Source: a plasmid. Taken from it: DNA of 64,000 nt. Positions 3,001 through 39,432 of this stretch are shown here, piece after piece. The stretch lies in the NCBI RefSeq assembly GCF_055900595.2, contig NZ_JBVWEU010000002.1; one strand, written 5' to 3'. Positions within the stretch are counted from its first letter, which is position 1; each line of letters starts with the position of its first letter. A model generated the notes under the pieces. That model was not told where the DNA came from and searched no databases. It worked only from the letters and a program-made list of their open reading frames with translations. Position numbers and translations under genes: made by a program.

Positions 3001-4762
3001 CAAAATCTCCTGCCAGCCGGGCATAGCGGACATTACGGTCCGGTTCACTGATGATGGTGGCCGGTCGCTGTTCTCCCCCCTGCCAGCGATATGTGTTCAC
3101 CCCGGCATCCTTCATGGCCATCAGCGCACTGCCTGTACCGGTTCGCTGCCCGCTGTCGGTTATCAGGACCTGTACGTTATGACGTGCGGCACCGTCCAGC
3201 AGGGTTAACGTCTCTTTCAGGGAGAGTTTTTCGCCCTGGTCAACGATAACAGTACTGCCCGGCGTGAAGGCCATGCCTTCCAGCAACTGACGACGTCCGG
3301 TTATCAGCTCACCGGACAGCCGTTCATCCTGCTTCAGGTTCATCTGCGAGCGACGGTCAGCAGCGATAATCTGCACTTCCCGCCCCTGCTCCCGGGCCAT
3401 CATGACCAGTTCAGCCACCCGCTCACGCTGCCCGGCTGCACCGCCCTGCCCGGACACAATGGCCAGCGACGGACGGTCCTGTGCCAGAACACTGACCGCA
3501 TCGCTGTAACCAGCCGTCCGGGGGACACTTTTCTCCGGATGTACGGTCACCCGGTTCTGTTTCATGATGTCACGACTGAGTGCCCGGACGGACAGCTCAT
3601 CGAGCACATGAATTCCTGATGCGAACAGCCCCTTCTCACGGTCGAGGGGGATAAGCTGCTCACGACTGATGGTCTCATCGATACCGGCGCGTGCCCGTTC
3701 AATCACACCATTTTCCGGCGGCAGTATACCGACCGTTCTGGCCAGCACGTCCGTGTACGTAAACTGCACTTTTCGTTCACTTAATCCGGCAATCGCCTGT
3801 GTCACCGCCTGCTGCACATCCGGCCCCTCCTGTGAAACAGCCCCGGGCGCCTGCGTGCGGGTCTCCGCACGCTGATCCGCCGCGTCACGATATGCCCGGA
3901 TGTCGAACCCGGTTTCCTTCAGCGTCTGCATCCATTCAGCCATTCTGACTTCAGGATCGACGTGCTGTTTGGATTTTCGCGTATCCAGTGCCGCCACATC
4001 CCGGGATTTCAGCGAGGCATCTTCCCCGACGGCCTCCCGGATTGCCTGTGAGCGTCCGGAAAAGGCCTCCACCGGTACGCCCGGCATCTCCCACATACCG
4101 TGCTTACCCACCACTTCGGTTTCATAGCCCAGCGCCTCAACCTGCTCTTTCAGTTTTTCCCGGTAGAGCCTGCCAAAGGCAATCTGATTAGCGTACACAT
4201 TCTCAATGAACCCCGTTTTCCCCACTTTGTCACTGCTCAGTGTCTTCCATTCGCCGTTATGCTGCGTGACATTAGCCACCACCGCATGCGTGTGTAACTG
4301 TGGTTCCTGATCGCGACTGGTGTCGTGGTTAAACAGTGCCATCACCAGATTACCGGTCAGCACCGTTTCTGACTGTCCGTCCGTCATCACCCGTGTGGAG
4401 GCCAGCGCCTCCACCTGACGAACAGCAAAGTCCACGGCCTGGTTATGTGCATCAATCAGGCGCTTATCGCCACCTAACATGGCCATCATGGAGACACTTT
4501 TGGGGGCGGAGAAGGTCAGGTCGTAGCCGGGACGATGCCTGTTACTGCCATCCTGCATGCGGCTTAGATCCGCTCCGTCCGGCAGCCTTCCCTCCAGAAG
4601 ACGGGTAAAAACATCCTTATCGACACTGCCCTGCAGTCCCAGCTGTTCAGCCCCCCTGCCGGCCCAGCGTTCTCCCATGCTGCCCAGCACATAGTAATTA
4701 TCCTTGTCGGTATAATAGTTACCGGCACTTCCGGCCGATCTGACCTGCGCGATACTCATCAT
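1..4762 (-). CDS. traI: TraI relaxase/helicase, N-terminal ~1587 codons; 3' end lies beyond window start
   Basis: Not in ORF track because no stop in window. Manual reverse-complement translation from 4762 gives [27 protein letters not shown], matching my memory of the F TraI N-terminus. Frame must be open to position 2, since no stop-terminated minus ORF is reported. ATG overlaps the traD stop (ATGA at 4760-4764). Confidence 0.9.
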   Translation of the reverse strand, partial: MMSIAQVRSAGSAGNYYTDKDNYYVLGSMGERWAGRGAEQLGLQGSVDKDVFTRLLEGRLPDGADLSRMQDGSNRHRPGYDLTFSAPKSVSMMAMLGGDKRLIDAHNQAVDFAVRQVEALASTRVMTDGQSETVLTGNLVMALFNHDTSRDQEPQLHTHAVVANVTQHNGEWKTLSSDKVGKTGFIENVYANQIAFGRLYREKLKEQVEALGYETEVVGKHGMWEMPGVPVEAFSGRSQAIREAVGEDASLKSRDVAALDTRKSKQHVDPEVRMAEWMQTLKETGFDIRAYRDAADQRAETRTQAPGAVSQEGPDVQQAVTQAIAGLSERKVQFTYTDVLARTVGILPPENGVIERARAGIDETISREQLIPLDREKGLFASGIHVLDELSVRALSRDIMKQNRVTVHPEKSVPRTAGYSDAVSVLAQDRPSLAIVSGQGGAAGQRERVAELVMMAREQGREVQIIAADRRSQMNLKQDERLSGELITGRRQLLEGMAFTPGSTVIVDQGEKLSLKETLTLLDGAARHNVQVLITDSGQRTGTGSALMAMKDAGVNTYRWQGGEQRPATIISEPDRNVRYARLAGDFAASVKAGEESVAQVSGVREQAILTQAIRSELKTQGVLGHQEVTMTALSPVWLDSRSRYLRDMYRPGMVMEQWNPETRSHDRYVIDRVTAQSHSLTLRDAQGETQVVRISSLDSSWSLFRPEKMPVADGERLRVTGKIPGLRVSGGDRLQVASVSEDAMTVVVPGRAEPATLPVADSPFTALKLENGWVETPGHSVSDSAKVFASVTQMAMDNATLNGLARSGRDVRLYSSLDETRTAEKLARHPSFTVVSEQIKARAGETLLETAISLQKAGLHTPAQQAIHLALPVLESKNLAFSMVDLLTEAKSFAAEGTSFIDLGGEINAQIKRGDLLYVDVAKGYGTGLLVSRASYEAEKSILRHILEGKEAVTPLMERVPGELMEKLTSGQRAATRMILETSDRFTVVQGYAGVGKTTQFRAVMSAVNMLPESERPRVVGLGPTHRAVGEMRSAGVDAQTLASFLHDTQMQQRSGETPDFSNTLFLLDESSMVGNTDMARAYALIAAGGGRAVASGDTDQLQAIAPGQPFRLQQTRSAADVVIMKEIVRQTPELREAVYSLINRDVERALSGLESVKPSQVPRLEGAWAPEHSVTEFSHSQEAKLAEAQQKAMLKGEAFPDIPMTLYEAIVRDYTGRTPEAREQTLIVTHLNEDRRVLNSMIHDAREKAGELGKEQVMVPVLNTANIRDGELRRLSTWETHRDALVLVDNAYHRIAGISKDDGLITLQDAEGNTRLISPREAVAEGVTLYTPDTIRVGTGDRMRFTKSDRERGYVANSVWTVTAVSGDSVTLSDGQQTRVIRPGQERAEQHIDLAYAITAHGAQGASETFAIALEGTEGNRKLMAGFESAYVALSRMKQHVQVYTDNRQGWTDAINNAVQKGTAHDVFEPKPDREVMNAERLFSTARELRDVAAGRAVLRQAGLAGGDSPARFIAPGRKYPQPYVALPAFDRNGKSAGIWLNPLTTDDGNGLRGFSGEGRVKGSGDAQFVALQGSRNGESLLADN

Positions 4763-32659: not shown

Positions 32660-33019
32660 TCAGAGGCCAACGACGGCCATACCCACAGCAATAAATACAG
32701 AGATGATGGCAAAACCGGCCAGGAACTTGACGTTTTTGGTCATCATGTACATGACAGCACCGACCAGAACTTCAGCCAGAACAACCCATTTAACAACACT
32801 GGAGTCCTTACCGAAGGTCGCCTTAACCGTGGTGTTACCGCTTGCCATCAGGTCCTGGCCCTGTGCTGCCATTGCCAGTTGCGGGAAGAACATCATCAGA
32901 ACAGCAGCCGGGATCACAGCGCGAGCCAGGCGAAGCATATTCAGACGAGTGAATTTAGAAAAAAACGATTTCTTTTTGACGGGCGCAGAAGCACCCTGAA
33001 CACTTAAAACAGCATTCAT
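32660..33019 (-). CDS. traA: TraA propilin (119 aa); mature N-terminus [13 protein letters not shown]...
   Basis: Matches F propilin except in the N-terminal epitope region (F has AGSSGQDLMA). Confidence 0.95.
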
Positions 33020-33051
33020 AAGTTACCTCAATTTCGGATAAATGAATAAAA

Positions 33052-33453
33052 CTAGAGTGTATTAAATGTTATATCTTCCTCTTTATCTGCCTCCCTGAAT
33101 ATCTCCGAGTTATAAAAATCAGGAAACTTGATCAAATGATCAATAACTCTGTCTGCAGCCTCATCTGTTTTACACCATCCACTACGATTTTTGGCTGCAA
33201 TAAGTAGCTGGTTAGTTTCATCATCCAGACGCATTGTCAGATACTTAACCAGCGACTTACCATAGATATTCCCTGCCCTGTTAAACTTTGGATAGCGGTG
33301 AAGATGATCTTTAAGTCTTATTACTGCCTCAAACGATCGACTTCTTCCGCTTCTGTTACTTGCCTCAATTAATAGACTTTCCACATCTACAGGTAATTTT
33401 AGTTTTACCATCTTACCTGTTGCAGAACGTGTACCAAATCTTTTCAATAACAC
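33052..33453 (-). CDS. traY: TraY ribbon-helix-helix oriT-binding protein
   Basis: Near-identical to recalled F TraY (..KRFGTRSATGKMVKLKLPVDVESLL..). Confidence 0.9.
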   Translation of the reverse strand: MLLKRFGTRSATGKMVKLKLPVDVESLLIEASNRSGRSRSFEAVIRLKDHLHRYPKFNRAGNIYGKSLVKYLTMRLDDETNQLLIAAKNRSGWCKTDEAADRVIDHLIKFPDFYNSEIFREADKEEDITFNTL

Positions 33454-33545
33454 CTCCCGCTGTTTATCTTCTGGTTACCACTTATGTTTGCAGAATAATC
33501 AGAAAAGGTAAATAGACGGAAAGTCTATATTTTATTAACACTTTA
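33454..33545 (-). promoter_or_regulatory. P_Y region (main tra operon promoter, TraJ/ArcA-dependent in F)
   Basis: Position between traJ stop and traY start. Assigned by analogy with F only. Confidence 0.35.
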
Positions 33546-34235
33546 TTAACGCGTATTTATGATACACATAGCCTTCTCGTACAAATAATGAATAAACTTT
33601 TTATTGTAGAGTAAGATGATTAACTCATCTTTATTAGAAACAGAGAAGTAGTCGCATATCAGAGATGCGTGTTTCTTTGATGTGGAGATGGATATTTTTA
33701 ATATTCTTGCTATAGCATTATGACTGATTCCGGTGCTATATAAGTAAAAGACATCATTTACATATGATGATACAGAAGAATCATCACTCATTCTTCTGAT
33801 TATATTTCTGATATCATCACTGACAATCGTTTTTTGATTATAACTGTCTTTATGACGAACATGAGCAGCATCATAAAATTGCCACAGAATGATATTTCTG
33901 TGTCCATTAAGAAATGACTGGATAGATATTGTCCAGAATCTGTTCTGAATAAAAACATCCTCTACAAGATTAAGATGCGTATGCTCATTCCTGTATGCTT
34001 CCATCTCTGTGACAGAGATCAATTCACAAAAATCTCTCTGCGACAGAAGCCATTTTTCAGCACTTTGATCTTGTGTAAGAAATGACTCATGAAACAGCGT
34101 ATTGCAAAAAATAAATTTTCCAGTTTCGTCCCTGATACAGGCTGGATTTGGATAATCCTGAATAACTGCCGTCAGATTTTCCAGCAGATCTATTTGACGA
34201 GCATGTTTTTGTTGAATACGATCCATCGGATACAT
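33546..34235 (-). CDS. traJ: TraJ transfer activator, F-type allele (229 aa from MYPMDRIQQ)
   Basis: ORF 33546..34316 trimmed to the Met giving the recalled F TraJ sequence. Confidence 0.9.
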   Translation of the reverse strand: MYPMDRIQQKHARQIDLLENLTAVIQDYPNPACIRDETGKFIFCNTLFHESFLTQDQSAEKWLLSQRDFCELISVTEMEAYRNEHTHLNLVEDVFIQNRFWTISIQSFLNGHRNIILWQFYDAAHVRHKDSYNQKTIVSDDIRNIIRRMSDDSSVSSYVNDVFYLYSTGISHNAIARILKISISTSKKHASLICDYFSVSNKDELIILLYNKKFIHYLYEKAMCIINTR

Positions 34236-34305
34236 AGGAACCTCCTCACAAAGGATTCTATGGACAGTCGATGCAGGGAGGAGAGAACTCCCTGCATCGG
34301 CGATT
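34227..34305 (+). ncRNA. finP: FinP antisense RNA (approximate ends)
   Basis: Antisense to the traJ leader/RBS. Stem-loop GATGCAGGGA-GGAGAGAAC-TCCCTGCATC followed by GGCGATTTT on the plus strand ends ~34305. Length placed by analogy with F FinP (~79 nt). Confidence 0.55.
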
Positions 34306-34421
34306 TTCAAATTCAAATTTTAACGTGGCATTAACCACGTAATTAATATACTAATTATCTTTCGTACTGTCACCTTTTTAAATAATAAAAACTCTGATAT
34401 TTGAACGAAGTCAAATTTCTT

Positions 34422-34805
34422 TTATTCATCATCATTTTTTGGAAAAAATCGTTCCATCTCAGATGATACCTTCTCCCTGATATCTTCAACCATATTGGCA
34501 TATTCAAACTTTGGATTTCCGGAGACATGAGGACTGAGAGACTCAATACCCAAAATTTTCGCTACTGATGATTGTGTTTTTACAACGCATTCAAGAAGCA
34601 ATTTATTAAACTCAGTCTGATTAAATGCAGACTCTTTACGCTCCATCTGAGCCTCATGTACACGAAGCCCCAGTTCAAGAAGCATTGAAGCTGTTGCTGA
34701 AAAACTGACATCTTTTTCCCTTGCCCCTTCCTGTCGACGCTTCTCAATAATCGCATTTATTTTTTCATAGGCATCATTGCTGATATACAGGTTCACCTTA
34801 GCCAT
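34422..34805 (-). CDS. traM: TraM relaxosome accessory protein (127 aa)
   Basis: Sequence matches recalled F TraM (MAKVNLYISNDAYEKINAIIEKRRQEGAREKDVSFS...). Confidence 0.95.
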   Translation of the reverse strand: MAKVNLYISNDAYEKINAIIEKRRQEGAREKDVSFSATASMLLELGLRVHEAQMERKESAFNQTEFNKLLLECVVKTQSSVAKILGIESLSPHVSGNPKFEYANMVEDIREKVSSEMERFFPKNDDE

Positions 34806-35180
34806 TAGAGATTACCTTTTTTGAACATAAAATAAAGTTAATTTCGAAACACTAAAATTCATAATGCAAACAGGGACGCACCGCTAGCAGAGCCCCTGGC
34901 GGTATCCTATAAAAAAACACACCGCGCCGCTAGCAGCACCCCTAATATAAAATAATGTTTTTTATAAAAATAGTCAGTACCACCCCTACAAAGCGGTGTC
35001 GGCGCGTTGTTGTAGCCGCGCCGACACCGCTTTTTTAAATATCATAAAGAGAGTAAGAGAAACTAATTTTTCATAACACTCTATTTATAAAGAAAAATCA
35101 GCAAAAACTTGTTTTTGCGTGGGGTGTGGTGCTTTTGGTGGTGAGAACCACCAACCTGTTGAGCCTTTTTGTGGAGTGGG
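34806..35180. other. oriT: oriT region; F-type nic sequence GCGTGGGGTGT|GGTGCTTTT at ~35117-35136, preceded by direct repeats CACCGC(G)CCGCTAGCAG and an AT-rich bend region
   Basis: Sequence tttgcgtggggtgtggtgcttttggtggtgag seen at 35113-35144. Direct repeats at 34877-34950. Position between traM and gene X. Confidence 0.85.
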
Positions 35181-35218
35181 TTAAATTATTTACGGATAAA
35201 GTCACCAGAGGTGGAAAA

Positions 35219-35728
35219 ATGAAAAAATGGATGTTAGCCATCTGCCTGATGTTTATAAATGAGATCTGCCAGGCCACTGATTGCTTTGATCTTGCAGGCC
35301 GGGATTACAAAATAGATCCTGATTTACTGAGAGCAATATCATGGAAAGAATCCCGTTACCGGGTTAATGCCATCGGTATTAATCCGGTAACGGGATATGG
35401 CAGCGGACTGATGCAGGTAGATTCCCAGCATTTTAACGAACTGGCCCGCTACGGAATTAAGCCGGAACATCTGACAACAGATCCCTGCATGAACATTTAT
35501 ACCGGTGCTTATTATCTGGCAATAGCATTTAAAAAATGGGGCGTCACCTGGGAGGCCGTTGGTGCATACAATGCAGGATTCAGGAAATCCGAACGCCAGA
35601 ACCAGAGACGTCTTGCCTACGCATCAGAGGTTTACCGGATTTATACCGGGATAAAAAGCAGTAAAGGTATCCGGCTTCCGGCCACGAAGAAATCACTTCC
35701 GGAAATTAACAGCGTGCAGAACAATTAA
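35219..35728 (+). CDS. Gene X / orf169 lytic transglycosylase (169 aa from [12 protein letters not shown])
   Basis: SLT-domain motifs ([13 protein letters not shown]). ORF 35126..35728 trimmed, since the longer ORF would run across the nic site. Confidence 0.85.
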
Positions 35729-35987
35729 TCTTACAGACATTGTCAGATACCGGTTATGCCGCAAAAGCGGCATGGAAGGCCACACAAAAAAATATCATAT
35801 GAGTGACAATACTGACTGGCCGAAGCCCCGCGAAGCGGGAACCCATCTTATATATACCCGGTAACTGCGCAGCCTCCTGCCAGACCATTTTTCGCGGGCA
35901 CAATATTTACAGACAACCGGAAAGCCGGTTGATGAAATTGAGGTATATCAGACGACACAGCAATGCCGAAAAATGATAATATAAGTA

Positions 35988-36015
35988 AAGCCCCGAAAAT
36001 TTTTTCGGGGCTTTA
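35988..36015. terminator. Perfect palindrome AAAGCCCCGAAAATTTTTTCGGGGCTTT; bidirectional terminator between convergent gene X and the 300-aa ORF
   Basis: GC stem flanked by A/T runs on both strands, seen in sequence. Confidence 0.6.
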
Positions 36016-36024
36016 CTTATATTA

Positions 36025-36927
36025 TCATGACTTCCACTTTCTGAACTGTTCGGCAATCACCCATAACGCCTTGTTGATTCTTATATCACCATCAATACCT
36101 GTAATGGCTCTTGTCCTGGTATTTTTCCCGGAGGCACTTCGCCCCGATAATCCACCTTTTATCATATTCTCCTGAACCCGCTGCCAGGTTGTCCAGAGAT
36201 CGTTCTGTTTGTCTTCCCGACGACGGGGAGTAATTATCTGTTCAGGTGTCACTGGCGTTTTATTTTCATCTTCATACCTGACCATCAGTGCAGCTCTGCC
36301 AAATAAATGTTGCTCGTCACTGTTAAGATGAATTTCTTTCATCGCCTCCATATTATCAGTGACCTTATCAAAGACACCGAGCACTTCATACGCTCCCTCG
36401 ATAACCTGCCCGACAATATCACCTTTATGTGGAACGCGGATTTCGCCAAAATTATTTCCGCACACCAGGCCATTTGTGCAGACAAAACGAAAAATTCCGG
36501 GGATCATCTGATAACTGGATGAACCATCATGTGAATTAAGCAGGATAATTTCAGGAACTTCCTGCCCGTTAATATGCCCTTCCCTGCGAAGACGTAACAT
36601 ATGTTTACTGTATTCGCGACGTCCCAAATCACGAACCCGACTCTGACAGGCAAAGAATGGCTGGAAACCTTCATCACGTAACTTATTGATGATATTGATT
36701 GTTGGAATATACGTATAACGTTCACTCCGGGACTCATGTTTATCACCGGAAAATACCGAAGGCACGAACTGCATTAATTCATCATCCGTTAAAGGACGTT
36801 CACGGCGGATGGAATTATACCGACCAAAACGGGAAGCTAATCGCATAACAGCTACTCCTTTATGAAAGAATAAATTTAATAAAAAATTTTTCCGCTTAAT
36901 ATCATCCCTCCCGGTCACCATTAACAA
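36025..36927 (-). CDS. Leading-region protein, tentatively DUF932-like (ORF 300 aa; likely start at MRLASRFGRY)
   Basis: ORF track. Family assignment from memory of leading-region gene content only. Confidence 0.55.
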   Translation of the reverse strand: MLMVTGRDDIKRKNFLLNLFFHKGVAVMRLASRFGRYNSIRRERPLTDDELMQFVPSVFSGDKHESRSERYTYIPTINIINKLRDEGFQPFFACQSRVRDLGRREYSKHMLRLRREGHINGQEVPEIILLNSHDGSSSYQMIPGIFRFVCTNGLVCGNNFGEIRVPHKGDIVGQVIEGAYEVLGVFDKVTDNMEAMKEIHLNSDEQHLFGRAALMVRYEDENKTPVTPEQIITPRRREDKQNDLWTTWQRVQENMIKGGLSGRSASGKNTRTRAITGIDGDIRINKALWVIAEQFRKWKS

Positions 36928-36964
36928 GATTGCAACAATCAGGAGGGATATTCATCACATCCGG

Positions 36965-37252
36965 TCAGCAGATCGCTCGGATATCGAGGCCGGCACGCTT
37001 AATCTGACGCAGGAACTGTTTGAAGTGATCGGCTTCCGCAATGTTGATATGGCGGAACTGCTTATCCACACCCTGACTGAGCGCGTAGCTATAACTGAAG
37101 GCCATCTTTTCCGGGTGGCTTTTGCGATATTTTTTCAGCTCAGTCAGGCTGCTGAATTCCAGGACGTCCCACTCTTCCCCGGTGTTTTTTTTCTTCCCGG
37201 CAACAAGAAGCGTGTACGACGCGGTGTTAACGTGGATATTTCGGGTACTCAT
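36965..37252 (-). CDS. Hypothetical leading-region protein (95 aa)
   Basis: ORF track. Immediately downstream of the Frpo-like element and co-oriented with the following gene. Confidence 0.5.
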   Translation of the reverse strand: MSTRNIHVNTASYTLLVAGKKKNTGEEWDVLEFSSLTELKKYRKSHPEKMAFSYSYALSQGVDKQFRHINIAEADHFKQFLRQIKRAGLDIRAIC

Positions 37253-37259
37253 CCTGCTT

Positions 37260-37790
37260 TCTCCTCTCTCTGGTTTTCAGCCCCCATCATCGGTTGAGTT
37301 TCGGGAGCCGCCGCAGGCCACAGCGCGACAGAGGCGGCGCGACCGGAACGGTCGCTGCAAGCCCGGGGTTTCGCGTCATGGATGGAAGTCCGCCAGGGCG
37401 GAGACAGCTCCGCTGGCTCCGTTCACGACAGCCCGCCCCGCCAGGGGGACGCCCGGGAAAGGCACAGGCAGAAGAAGAACAAGACAGACAGGAATCAGGG
37501 CAGCAGTAATCAGAGTCAGAACAGGAGGAAAAAGAGAATAATCACAGGGAAGGTGATGTGGTTTCCGACAGGTCATAAACAGAGAAGGCGGGGGAAAAGA
37601 ACGGGCGCCGCAGACGCACGTTCATCCCCGTTCCCGAAGGGAAACGGCCTTCCTGGCAGTCTGGTTGTTCATGCCCGTACAATGCCAGCAAGGAGAAAGG
37701 GGCCACCGGCGAACCAGCAGCCCCTTTATAAAGGCGCTTCAGTGCAGTCAGACCAGCATCAGACCTGAAAAGGCGGGCCTGCGCCCGCCT
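37260..37790. promoter_or_regulatory. GC-rich structured non-coding element, Frpo/ssi-like single-strand promoter candidate (copy 1)
   Basis: No credible ORF. About 180 bp (37262-37445) repeated at 42309-42840. Multiple short hairpins (e.g. GCGACCGGAACGGTCGC). Confidence 0.5.
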
Positions 37791-37798
37791 CCAGGTTG

Positions 37799-37957
37799 CT
37801 ACTTACCGGATTCGTAAGCCATGAAAGCCGCCACCTCCCTGTATCCGTCTCTGTAACGAATCTCGCACAGCGATTTTCGTGTCAGATAAGTGAATATCAA
37901 CAGTGTGAGACACACGATCAACACACACCAGACAAGAGAGCTGCGTGGTAGTTTCAT
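37799..37957 (-). CDS. hok: Hok-family toxin (52 aa) of the flm/hok-sok post-segregational killing locus
   Basis: C-terminal 52 aa of ORF 37799..38098 reads [52 protein letters not shown], which matches Hok as I recall it. Confidence 0.9.
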
Positions 37958-38015
37958 GGCCTTCTTCTCCTTGCGCAAAGCGCGGTAAGAGGCTATCCTG
38001 ATGTTGTCTAAGCAT
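37803..38015 (-). CDS. mok: Mok (modulation of killing) overlapping reading frame (70 aa)
   Basis: 70-codon ORF overlapping hok in another frame, as in hok/sok systems. Confidence 0.7.
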
Positions 38016-38060
38016 GCAGGGGCCTCGTGGGTTAATGAAAAATTAACTACGGGGCTTTTG
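37990..38060 (+). ncRNA. sok: Sok-type antisense RNA (position approximate)
   Basis: Placed antisense to the mok start/hok leader by analogy. Ends not determined. Confidence 0.3.
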
Positions 38061-38227
38061 TCCTTCTGCCACACAACACGGCAACAAACCACCTTCACGT
38101 CATGAGGCAGAAAGCCTCAAGCGCCGGGCACATCATAGCCCATATACCTGCACGCTGACCACACTCACTTTTCCTGAAAATAACCCGCTCATTCAGGCTA
38201 CGGGTAATCCGTGTGATTGTTGTCGCA

Positions 38228-38947
38228 TCACGCTGCCTCCCGGAGTTTGTTCGGCACCATCCACCGCTCCATCTCACGGACAGCGTGACCAGCCTCTCTT
38301 GCTGCAAGACTGGCTTCCGCAATAACCTGCCAGAATGGCATATCCTGCCACTGCCAGCGTTCCATTCCGGCCAGTGACGGAAAACGCTCGCCCCACTGCC
38401 AGAACAGGGTTTCCAGATCATGCTCTGCCACCCTGTCACTCCAGCGGGCATGCCAGCTTCCGACTGTTTCCGGTGAATGGAACGCCAGTTCGATTTCCGC
38501 CTGAGCGACCAGCGCCTGGTACGCACGGGCTTTCTGCTCTACCTCCCGTGCCTGCTGACGGCTGTACTTCTGCATGACCAGTGCGGATTTGTGGCGACTG
38601 CGCTCCCTGACACGGAACCGCACCGACGGGAACAGCCGCTCTGCTGCATCGCCGGGAAGGGGAAGAAGGCAGACCTCGCCCTGAGTTTCAATCAGCACAT
38701 CGACTGCATACAGCCACTGAGAACGGTTGCCGCGCAGTTCTTCTGCGGTCAGGGACGGCATGAAAAATCGCAGGTCAGACAACGACATCCTGCGGCTTCC
38801 GTTCAGACAGCGGAAAAACGCCCCCGCATACGGATATTCCGCCAGCAAGTTTCCCTGATGGCGGCGTTTTTCCGTCTCCGCCACCGCCCGCCATGTGGCC
38901 TGTTGCTCTGCGCTGAGGGGAACCAGTGCCTGTGAACGTGCGCTCAT
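38228..38947 (-). CDS. psiA: PsiA (239 aa)
   Basis: Size equals F PsiA. Immediately downstream of psiB with 4-nt overlap. Confidence 0.88.
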
Positions 38948-39378
38948 GCCTGACCTCCTTCCGCCATCAGAATATGGATGATGTCGTTAACGCTGTACCT
39001 CTGCGTATCCAGTGACGCCGCCAGTGCCAGTGAATGGCTGACGGCTTCCGGTGCAAACCGCCGCTGTACCTGAATCACCGCAAACGGCTCACCACCGGCA
39101 TTCACCAGAACCAGCACCCAGACCTGAGAGACATCGCCCGGTGAACATAACGCCAGGTGAAAACGTTCGTGGGCAGGCGTGAAACGGACCTGGACGGGGA
39201 AAAAGCCGCCAAACTCGCTGCCGTACTCGCCGTTCATCGTCCAGTTATCCGGCGCATCCAGCTCCCGCATCACGGCGTGAGTCAGCTCACGGCGTTCATC
39301 ACTTCCGGCAGCCCGGATATCTTCATATTCCTGTGCGTTCATGGTCTGTAATACATTCAGGGTCAGTTCAGTTTTCAT
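38944..39378 (-). CDS. psiB: PsiB SOS inhibitor (144 aa)
   Basis: Sequence near-identical to recalled F PsiB ([41 protein letters not shown]...). Confidence 0.92.
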
Positions 39379-39432
39379 CACGGTATCTCCCTTGCTGCCG
39401 CCCCGTCTCCGGCGGGGCGGTGTGGTTGTTCA

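Follow-up and report, generated by a model that had tools for sequence, protein, structure and literature searches.

The two genes at positions 36,025 to 37,252 of the window (the whole 64,000 nt stretch of plasmid DNA that was analyzed) correspond, by sequence and gene order, to an already known operon, the ygeB-ygeA (yubO-yubP, ORF95-ORF273) pair of the F-like leading region, and the main new point is that in this plasmid the pair is present while its single-stranded DNA promoter, Frpo1, is absent. The names ygeA and ygeB are those of Couturier et al. 2023 (PMC9849209), and yubP and yubO are found in PMC3438092. The account we favor, and regard as likely, is that this is the F-like operon with Frpo1 deleted, that it is not zygotically induced, and, more speculatively, that it specifies an enzyme-like YgeA whose dose is balanced with that of YgeB. 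Annotation by position, in which the first genes behind an Frpo element are for that reason taken to be early genes, would mislead here. DUF932, the family of YgeA, is very large on plasmids, integrative elements and phages, and loss of its member in F cuts transfer about 24-fold. The features of the region are as follows.

32660-34805, minus strand: traA, traY, traJ and traM, left of the nic site
About 34230-34340: FinP and the traJ 5' UTR (Rfam search)
35119-35135, plus strand: F-type oriT nic sequence, exact match
35126-35728, plus strand: SLT/gene X ORF, start of the leading region
35723-35911, plus strand: homologue of F ssiE, a single-strand initiation sequence, with the SLT/gene X ORF on one side and the ygeA terminator on the other
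35977-36024, both strands folded: intrinsic terminator of ygeA, a perfect palindrome with a GC core at 35987-36015
36025-36846, minus strand: ygeA (yubP, ORF273), DUF932 protein of 273 aa, intact
36847-36964, minus strand: ygeB-ygeA intergenic spacer of 118 nt, holding the ygeA ribosome-binding site (AAAGGAG)
36965-37252, minus strand: ygeB (yubO, ORF95), orphan protein of 95 aa, intact
37253-37311, minus strand: ygeB leader remnant, with the sole surviving piece of Frpo1/ssiD inside it
37312-37480: GC-rich repeat of 169 nt, 93% identical to 42694-42862
37765-37798, minus strand: 3' hairpin of the hok/flm mRNA followed by UUUU (RNA fold -29 kcal/mol, z -3.6)
37955-38126: sok RNA (RF01794, Rfam search)
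42311-42660, plus strand: Frpo2, an ssiD-type ssDNA promoter upstream of ssb, intact

The operon and its place in the leading region

The plasmid from which the window comes is conjugative and F-like (IncF). Its plus strand holds an exact match to the F-type nic sequence, GTGGGGTGT|GGTGCTTT (chance expectation 0.01), which identifies this strand as the one transferred, with 5' to 3' entry toward higher coordinates. Beyond nic, the minus strand carries, in order, the 273-aa ORF, the 95-aa ORF, hok/sok, psiA, psiB and a 674-aa ParB-like gene, and then the intact Frpo; the ORFs between the ParB-like gene and this Frpo are, by F gene order, a DUF905 gene and ssb. All of these minus-strand leading-region genes are templated by the transferred strand, and ygeA and ygeB are the first genes on it of which this is true. 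The order hok, ygeB, ygeA, SLT, oriT, traM matches that of F, and the pair resembles its F counterpart in the genes themselves, in its place between hok/flm and SLT/oriT, and in its orientation to the transferred strand. Three RefSeq IncF plasmids match the 2 kb region at 100% identity, and ygeB-ygeA DNA is matched in at least 5000 plasmid records, mostly from E. coli, Klebsiella, Salmonella and Shigella.

Reference sequences for F ssiE and for F ssiD/Frpo were those of Supplementary file 4 of PMC11541004. The ssiE homologue is 97.4% identical to F over 190/190 nt (blastn to D90180). In the Rfam search, sok, FinP and the traJ 5' UTR were the only families recovered from the region; matches to MIR8643 and RsmY at the ygeA terminator were weak, below threshold, and were rejected. 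YfjB/HerB (PMC13370423) corresponds to the neighboring ParB-like gene and not to the ygeB-ygeA pair.

The earlier note described a block of two genes, of about 273-300 aa and 95 aa, and both ORFs are indeed intact on the minus strand. The larger begins at the ATG at 36846, behind the AAAGGAG motif, and the resulting length of 273 aa agrees with that of the RefSeq CDS WP_001234469.1 in a plasmid that is 100% identical; the 300-aa ORF that starts at a TTG (36025-36927) is a mechanical maximum only. The inferred proteins are 99.3% (YgeA) and 97.9% (YgeB) identical to those of F (tblastn). In the spacer between the genes, a scan of the minus strand detected no sigma-70-like site. The perfect terminator proposed to close the block at 35988-36015 is real, and is larger than described, being a 26 bp perfect stem (35977-36024) that abuts the stop codon of ygeA and folds with -41.4 kcal/mol on the minus strand and -40.4 kcal/mol on the plus strand (z -11 and -12). 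Only on the minus (ygeA) strand does the stem end in a U5 tail. The palindrome aligns with that of F over 46/48 nt.

The missing Frpo1 and the intact Frpo2

In F, Frpo1 is positioned upstream of ygeA and ygeB (PMC9849209), with the 351 nt ssiD/Frpo1 hairpin directly upstream of ygeB. An Frpo-like element had also been placed directly in front of the pair in the window, and this proved to be incorrect. In contrast to F, the window keeps 32 of the 351 nt, a remnant found by blastn at 37281-37311 that corresponds to ssiD positions 1-32. Alignment to F and to pLD39-1-134kb shows that about 355 bp are absent, the gap lying between ...TTTCGGGAGCCGC and CGCAGGCCAC..., and the segment lost comprises the ssiD hairpin and about 30 nt. 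The deletion junction is at about 37311/37312, inside a CGGGAGCCGC|CGCAGG microhomology, and short imperfect direct repeats (CGGGAGCCGC / CGGGAGCGC) flank the break.

What had been named Frpo-like copy 1 is the GC-rich repeat at 37312-37480, and in F this sequence stands upstream of Frpo, outside the promoter hairpin. Single-stranded DNA folds of the repeat, and of larger stretches, gave z values from -0.4 to -1.7, which are not significant and led to the comparison with the published ssiD, from which it became clear that the repeat is flanking DNA. The 350 nt directly upstream of ygeB (37253-37602) fold with -53 kcal/mol (z +0.26), and 52 of 100 shuffled sequences did as well, so that the hairpin itself is gone. 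In Frpo2 the TTGACG box falls near sequence position 36, in the 5' arm of the transferred strand, a part that was deleted here; since ssiD 1-32 alone was kept, copy 1 has no -35 box. Placement of the -35/-10 boxes on the 3' arm of the Frpo stem was also considered and is ruled out by the position of TTGACG on the 5' arm, with no effect on this conclusion. A scan of the minus strand from 37253 to 37800 found no sigma-70-like site. Copy 1 therefore fails as a promoter of Frpo/ssi class 1 by sequence, by hairpin energy and by the -35 box, and is a scar; the remnant and the flanking GC-rich repeat together point to a second Frpo copy having once stood in front of ygeB.

The class (F ssiD; ColIb-P9 ssi1-3) has one intact member in the window, Frpo2, which serves as an internal control. 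It is 95.7% identical to F ssiD over 351/351 nt (blastn), and as single-stranded DNA it folds into one near-continuous hairpin of about 330 nt (-99.7 kcal/mol, z -8.8, 0/100 shuffles as good). When the transferred strand was scanned from 35128 to 52000 in sliding 300 nt segments, using the -75 kcal/mol criterion of PMC12672017, energies of that order occurred at about 42328-42850 only (-75 to -90 kcal/mol at Frpo2), and the segments upstream of ygeB gave -39 to -56 kcal/mol against a background median of -42 kcal/mol. The ColIb Frpo1 sequence likewise matches the window at copy 2 only and not upstream of ygeB.

According to the literature on F, the incoming transferred strand folds into the Frpo1/ssiD hairpin of about 330 nt, and host RNA polymerase uses this hairpin as a promoter. 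Transcription of ygeB and ygeA thus starts on single-stranded DNA, minutes after entry, and is switched off once the complementary strand is made; full transconjugant yield needs the operon. YgeA-sfGFP is seen in F transconjugants transiently, before ss-to-ds conversion, and deletion of Frpo1 abolishes the signal with Frpo2 intact (PMC9849209). In donor-elimination RNA-seq, Frpo1- and Frpo2-regulated genes are induced in recipient cells (PMC12672017). The window copy has lost Frpo1 by a microhomology-flanked deletion of about 355 bp that left the genes and terminator intact. Because the F deletion mutant shows no YgeA-sfGFP in spite of its Frpo2, zygotic induction of ygeB-ygeA has most likely been lost in the window plasmid as well, although the boundaries of the engineered deletion may differ. 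The prediction of very early expression in the recipient, made from position, consequently holds for the pair in plasmid F, where it is driven by Frpo1, and does not hold for this copy, from which Frpo1 has been deleted. A weak conventional promoter, or read-through from hok or Frpo2 transcripts, may still drive the pair; the hok 3' hairpin limits read-through into ygeB, and expression past this terminator would be weak at most.

Distribution and decay of the pair

The earlier note took a lack of conservation of the pair across plasmids as grounds for refutation, and this applies by half only. The ygeB-ygeA pairing is found in thousands of IncF plasmids; the two genes are split in IncFII(K)-type plasmids, and the small genes upstream of distant DUF932 genes are unrelated. 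In the IncFII(K)-type plasmids of Enterobacter and Klebsiella, a YgeB-like gene (104 aa, 63% identical) comes first behind one Frpo core, and a 154-aa gene, a 66-aa gene, an N6-methylase and others lie between it and the DUF932 gene, which follows another Frpo core and an unrelated 97-aa ORF. This ORF has its first 15 codons alone in common with the YgeB-like gene. Pantoea plasmids carry YgeB-like genes with no DUF932 gene nearby. A conserved small partner of DUF932 was sought and rejected, as the ORFs of about 100 aa upstream of distant DUF932 genes are related neither to YgeB nor to each other. In these comparisons the pair is conserved as a module only within F-like plasmids, and the recurring theme is a DUF932 gene behind an ssDNA promoter, with YgeB as a lineage-specific first gene.

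A 120 nt query across the deletion junction gave a single full-length match in 23 PLSDB plasmids, and in other plasmids it matched as two pieces lying about 350 bp further apart. Collinearity with the window revealed NZ_CP031323 as a 24th carrier, which brings the count to at least 24 plasmids. Of these, 21 have a frameshift in ygeA or ygeB or an IS that splits one of the two. The loss of 1 nt from ygeA (window position 36345), breaking the frame near codon 170, is common to 19 of the 24. Some members of this group carry a further lesion in ygeB, either a frameshift in the A8 run (T8 on the plus strand, 37185-37192) or an IS3 element that divides the gene. Frameshifts of ygeB at 37192 are present in several relatives, pO103-type plasmids among them. 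The window-type allele occurs in at least one further plasmid, AP026455, where an IS21-family element interrupts ygeB at about 37084-37097; NZ_CP128971, equal to it in length and match coordinates, was counted as a second copy of that plasmid. Both genes are intact, as in the window, in three carriers only: NZ_CP080263 (p135-3), NZ_CP120558 and NZ_MW808987.

The window sequence is a mosaic with a breakpoint at about 37230, to the right of which it is essentially identical to the frameshifted lineage, and to the left of which it carries a different, intact allele. The two intact genes could mean that the pair is still used, or that an intact allele was recently gained by recombination. Promoter deletion and gene decay occur together mostly within one inherited lineage, and so reflect few independent events. 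Nor is promoter loss required for decay, since in pO103-type plasmids, which lack ssb, psiAB and hok, both ygeA and ygeB carry frameshifts although the single Frpo in front of them is intact. In pCFSAN004180G, an IS110 element lies between Frpo1 and an intact ygeB-ygeA. Natural IncF plasmids have repeatedly disabled the pair, by promoter deletion, by IS insertions and by frameshifts, including those in the A8 run.

A similar history has been described for the ssi3 operon of IncI ESBL plasmids, also a leading-region operon with an ssDNA promoter, which was repeatedly lost in experimental evolution via promoter deletions, frameshifts and insertions (PMC10104558). The ssi3 operon (yfhA-psiB-psiA) differs from ygeB-ygeA in its genes and plasmid group, and its losses were laboratory-born and raised transfer in one host. 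In the published genetics of F, after 3 h, transconjugants amounted to 92.6% for wild-type F, 25.2% for dFrpo1, 32.7% for dFrpo1 dygeAB, 14.5% for dFrpo1 dygeA and 3.9% (about a 24-fold drop) for dygeA, and a deletion of ygeB only could not be constructed (PMC9849209). The natural lesion pattern fits these values, in which one partner without the other is worse than neither. If the doses of YgeA and YgeB, a lineage-specific small partner, must be balanced, this would explain why natural plasmids lose the promoter jointly with one or both of the genes.

The encoded proteins and their possible roles

The tentative assignment of the larger protein to DUF932 is confirmed. YgeA matches the full length of PF06067 (profile positions 1-227/227; E 2.3e-52; 178.5 bits, with a gathering cut-off of 23 bits), and the family is also matched by 107/107 of its aligned homologues. 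It lies outside the related NCBIfam family TIGR03299 (phage/plasmid-like protein), scoring 19.5 bits against a cut-off of 110.7. The DUF932 family has 5595 cluster representatives at 50% identity. Across the 107 homologues (about 40% identity), residues H82, C123, N125, H140, E226 and G231 of YgeA are invariant, and many Arg and Gly residues are near-invariant. An AlphaFold2 model of YgeA is confident (pLDDT 94, pTM 0.89); sequence and fold searches gave no significant structural relative of it in the PDB and no relative with a known activity. The smaller protein was said to have no recognizable family, and this also stands, as profile searches of Pfam, NCBIfam, PHROGs and PADLOC were empty. 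YgeB homologues (n = 163) are confined to Enterobacterales, and its model is moderate (pLDDT 67), with no significant match in a fold search. Literature searches (DUF932, DUF945, yafZ/yfjQ, ygeA/ygeB) retrieved no functional study beyond PMC9849209, and none of the papers found assigns a molecular function to DUF932, YgeA or YgeB.

Speculatively, YgeA may be an enzyme of new fold, or a metal-dependent factor, that acts on incoming DNA or on the host during establishment. Polar residues that never vary, a length that stays constant and a family so widespread would suit such a protein rather than a fast-evolving inhibitor, a suggestion we make with low confidence. The promoter-less variant of the window, with the decay seen in its relatives, provides a testable handle on the part played by DUF932 in plasmid establishment.

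Several other readings of the pair were weighed against the favored one. It is conceivable that the deletion had little effect, and that the pair is still expressed early through transcripts from Frpo2 or the hok promoter that read through psiB, psiA and hok into ygeB-ygeA. All of these genes share one strand and are templated by the transferred strand, both genes of the pair remain intact, and the hok 3' hairpin, with just four U behind it, is not a strong terminator. We nevertheless think this very unlikely, as deletion of Frpo1 alone was enough to abolish the YgeA-sfGFP signal of an F plasmid in which Frpo2 was present (PMC9849209), and ygeA or ygeB has been lost in 21 of at least 24 deletion carriers, as expected of genes that are no longer under selection. 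Alternatively, ygeB-ygeA might be an addiction module of toxin-antitoxin type, with a small antidote gene and a larger toxin gene, that stabilizes the leading region and is not an establishment factor. The small gene does precede the larger; in F, the ygeB-only deletion was unobtainable and dygeAB was better tolerated than dygeA alone (PMC9849209); and among natural plasmids, a disrupted ygeB beside an intact ygeA was observed only where Frpo1 is missing as well. However, a simple module of this kind predicts the opposite of what was found on removal of the supposed toxin, as loss of ygeA lowers transfer 24-fold (PMC9849209). Furthermore, neither protein matches a toxin or antitoxin in Pfam, NCBIfam or PADLOC, or has a significant match in fold searches. 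A spacer of 118 nt separates the genes, and each is also found on its own, YgeB-like genes at a distance from DUF932 and DUF932 with no YgeB. On balance an addiction module is improbable.

The same F genetics and natural lesions would be accommodated by a further possibility, which we consider unlikely: that YgeB and YgeA antagonize each other and are kept in balanced doses, and that YgeA is a metal-dependent enzyme of new fold acting on incoming plasmid DNA or on a host target. Either partner alone would then be harmful, and the operon would be removed as a unit, as by promoter deletion, by IS110 between promoter and genes, and by frameshifts or insertions in both genes. If so, the window would represent a rare intermediate, with its promoter gone and both genes intact, and natural dFrpo1 plasmids would be ready-made tools for studying the role of DUF932. 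It has also to be asked whether YgeA, YgeB or both are anti-defense proteins, that is, inhibitors of restriction, CRISPR or other host immunity. Leading regions that bear Frpo elements are enriched in anti-defense genes (PMC11541004). Plasmid DUF932 genes are found beside ssb and genes for KlcA-like antirestriction, methylase and ParB-like proteins. Homology of YgeA or YgeB to a known defense inhibitor was absent from Pfam, NCBIfam, PHROGs and the fold searches, which are general libraries. We give an anti-defense role a low probability. The DUF932 family also has chromosomal members. In its cryptic elements, E. coli K-12 carries two DUF932 genes of similar length to ygeA, yafZ in CP4-6 and yfjQ in CP4-57, for which the literature search found no functional data, and we know of no YgeB-like partner at either locus. 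Their islands also carry genes for KlcA-like antirestriction and DUF905 proteins, as leading regions do.

Lesions around ygeB-ygeA in other plasmids

In the related plasmid NZ_CP012500.1 (L027), an IS110-family insertion (3719-4723) separates the Frpo1 hairpin from an intact ygeB-ygeA operon, and the match to ssiD in this plasmid starts at position 17. The insertion is an independent route by which the operon has been uncoupled from its ssDNA promoter. A different arrangement is found in the pO103-type plasmids (L026, L028 and L029), which carry one Frpo copy, flanked directly by DUF1380/antirestriction genes and by frameshifted ygeB/ygeA, and which lack ssb, the ParB-like gene, psiAB and hok. 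Deletion through recombination between Frpo1 and Frpo2 was predicted as possible by Couturier et al. (PMC9849209), and the pO103-type arrangement has the appearance of that event.

A homopolymer within ygeB is the site of 1- or 2-nt frameshifts in several plasmids, namely L015, L017 and those of the pO103 type. In the window, this run lies at:

37185-37192, T8 on the plus strand, that is, A8 within ygeB codons 21-23

The run could be a slippage hot spot or, instead, the frameshifts seen in long-read assemblies could be sequencing errors.

Frpo copies and other folds of the transferred strand

The IncFII(K)-type plasmids (L004-L007) carry three copies of the Frpo core hairpin, with core sites upstream of 5001 and of 8026/9447, and each copy precedes an operon of its own. 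The first 15 codons (MHTRNVNVKTAAQES) are common to two of the genes that come first behind these cores, so that the repeated promoter module includes the beginning of the ORF that follows it.

Almost the whole of a 68-aa ORF, which annotation lists as a hypothetical protein, sits within the Frpo hairpin sequence:

42307-42513, minus strand, 68-aa ORF in the window
4377-4583, 68-aa ORF in L002

It is presumably what some annotations call yubN at the Frpo1 position, and it is probably not a real gene.

Two further ssDNA folds of the transferred strand, at 44148-44487 and 40768-41087, narrowly miss the threshold of -75 kcal/mol per 300 nt, with values of -71 to -73. The former is upstream of additional ORFs of the leading region and could represent another class of ssDNA promoter.

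Neighboring elements: ssiE and a putative partition locus

The window also carries a single-strand initiation sequence of a second kind, a homologue of the ssiE of F (97% over 190 nt):

35723-35911, ssiE homologue, with the SLT gene on one side and the ygeA terminator on the other

Because of this position, the 48-nt perfect palindrome adjoins ssiE on the transferred strand.

Near the leading region, at 44731-44945, is a tandem array of four to five 43-bp repeats that contain an internal inverted repeat (TGGGACCGTGGTCCCA...), adjoined by ORFs of 323 and 391 aa on the minus strand (45011-47157). Together, the repeats and these genes of ParB and ParA size look like a putative partition centromere locus.
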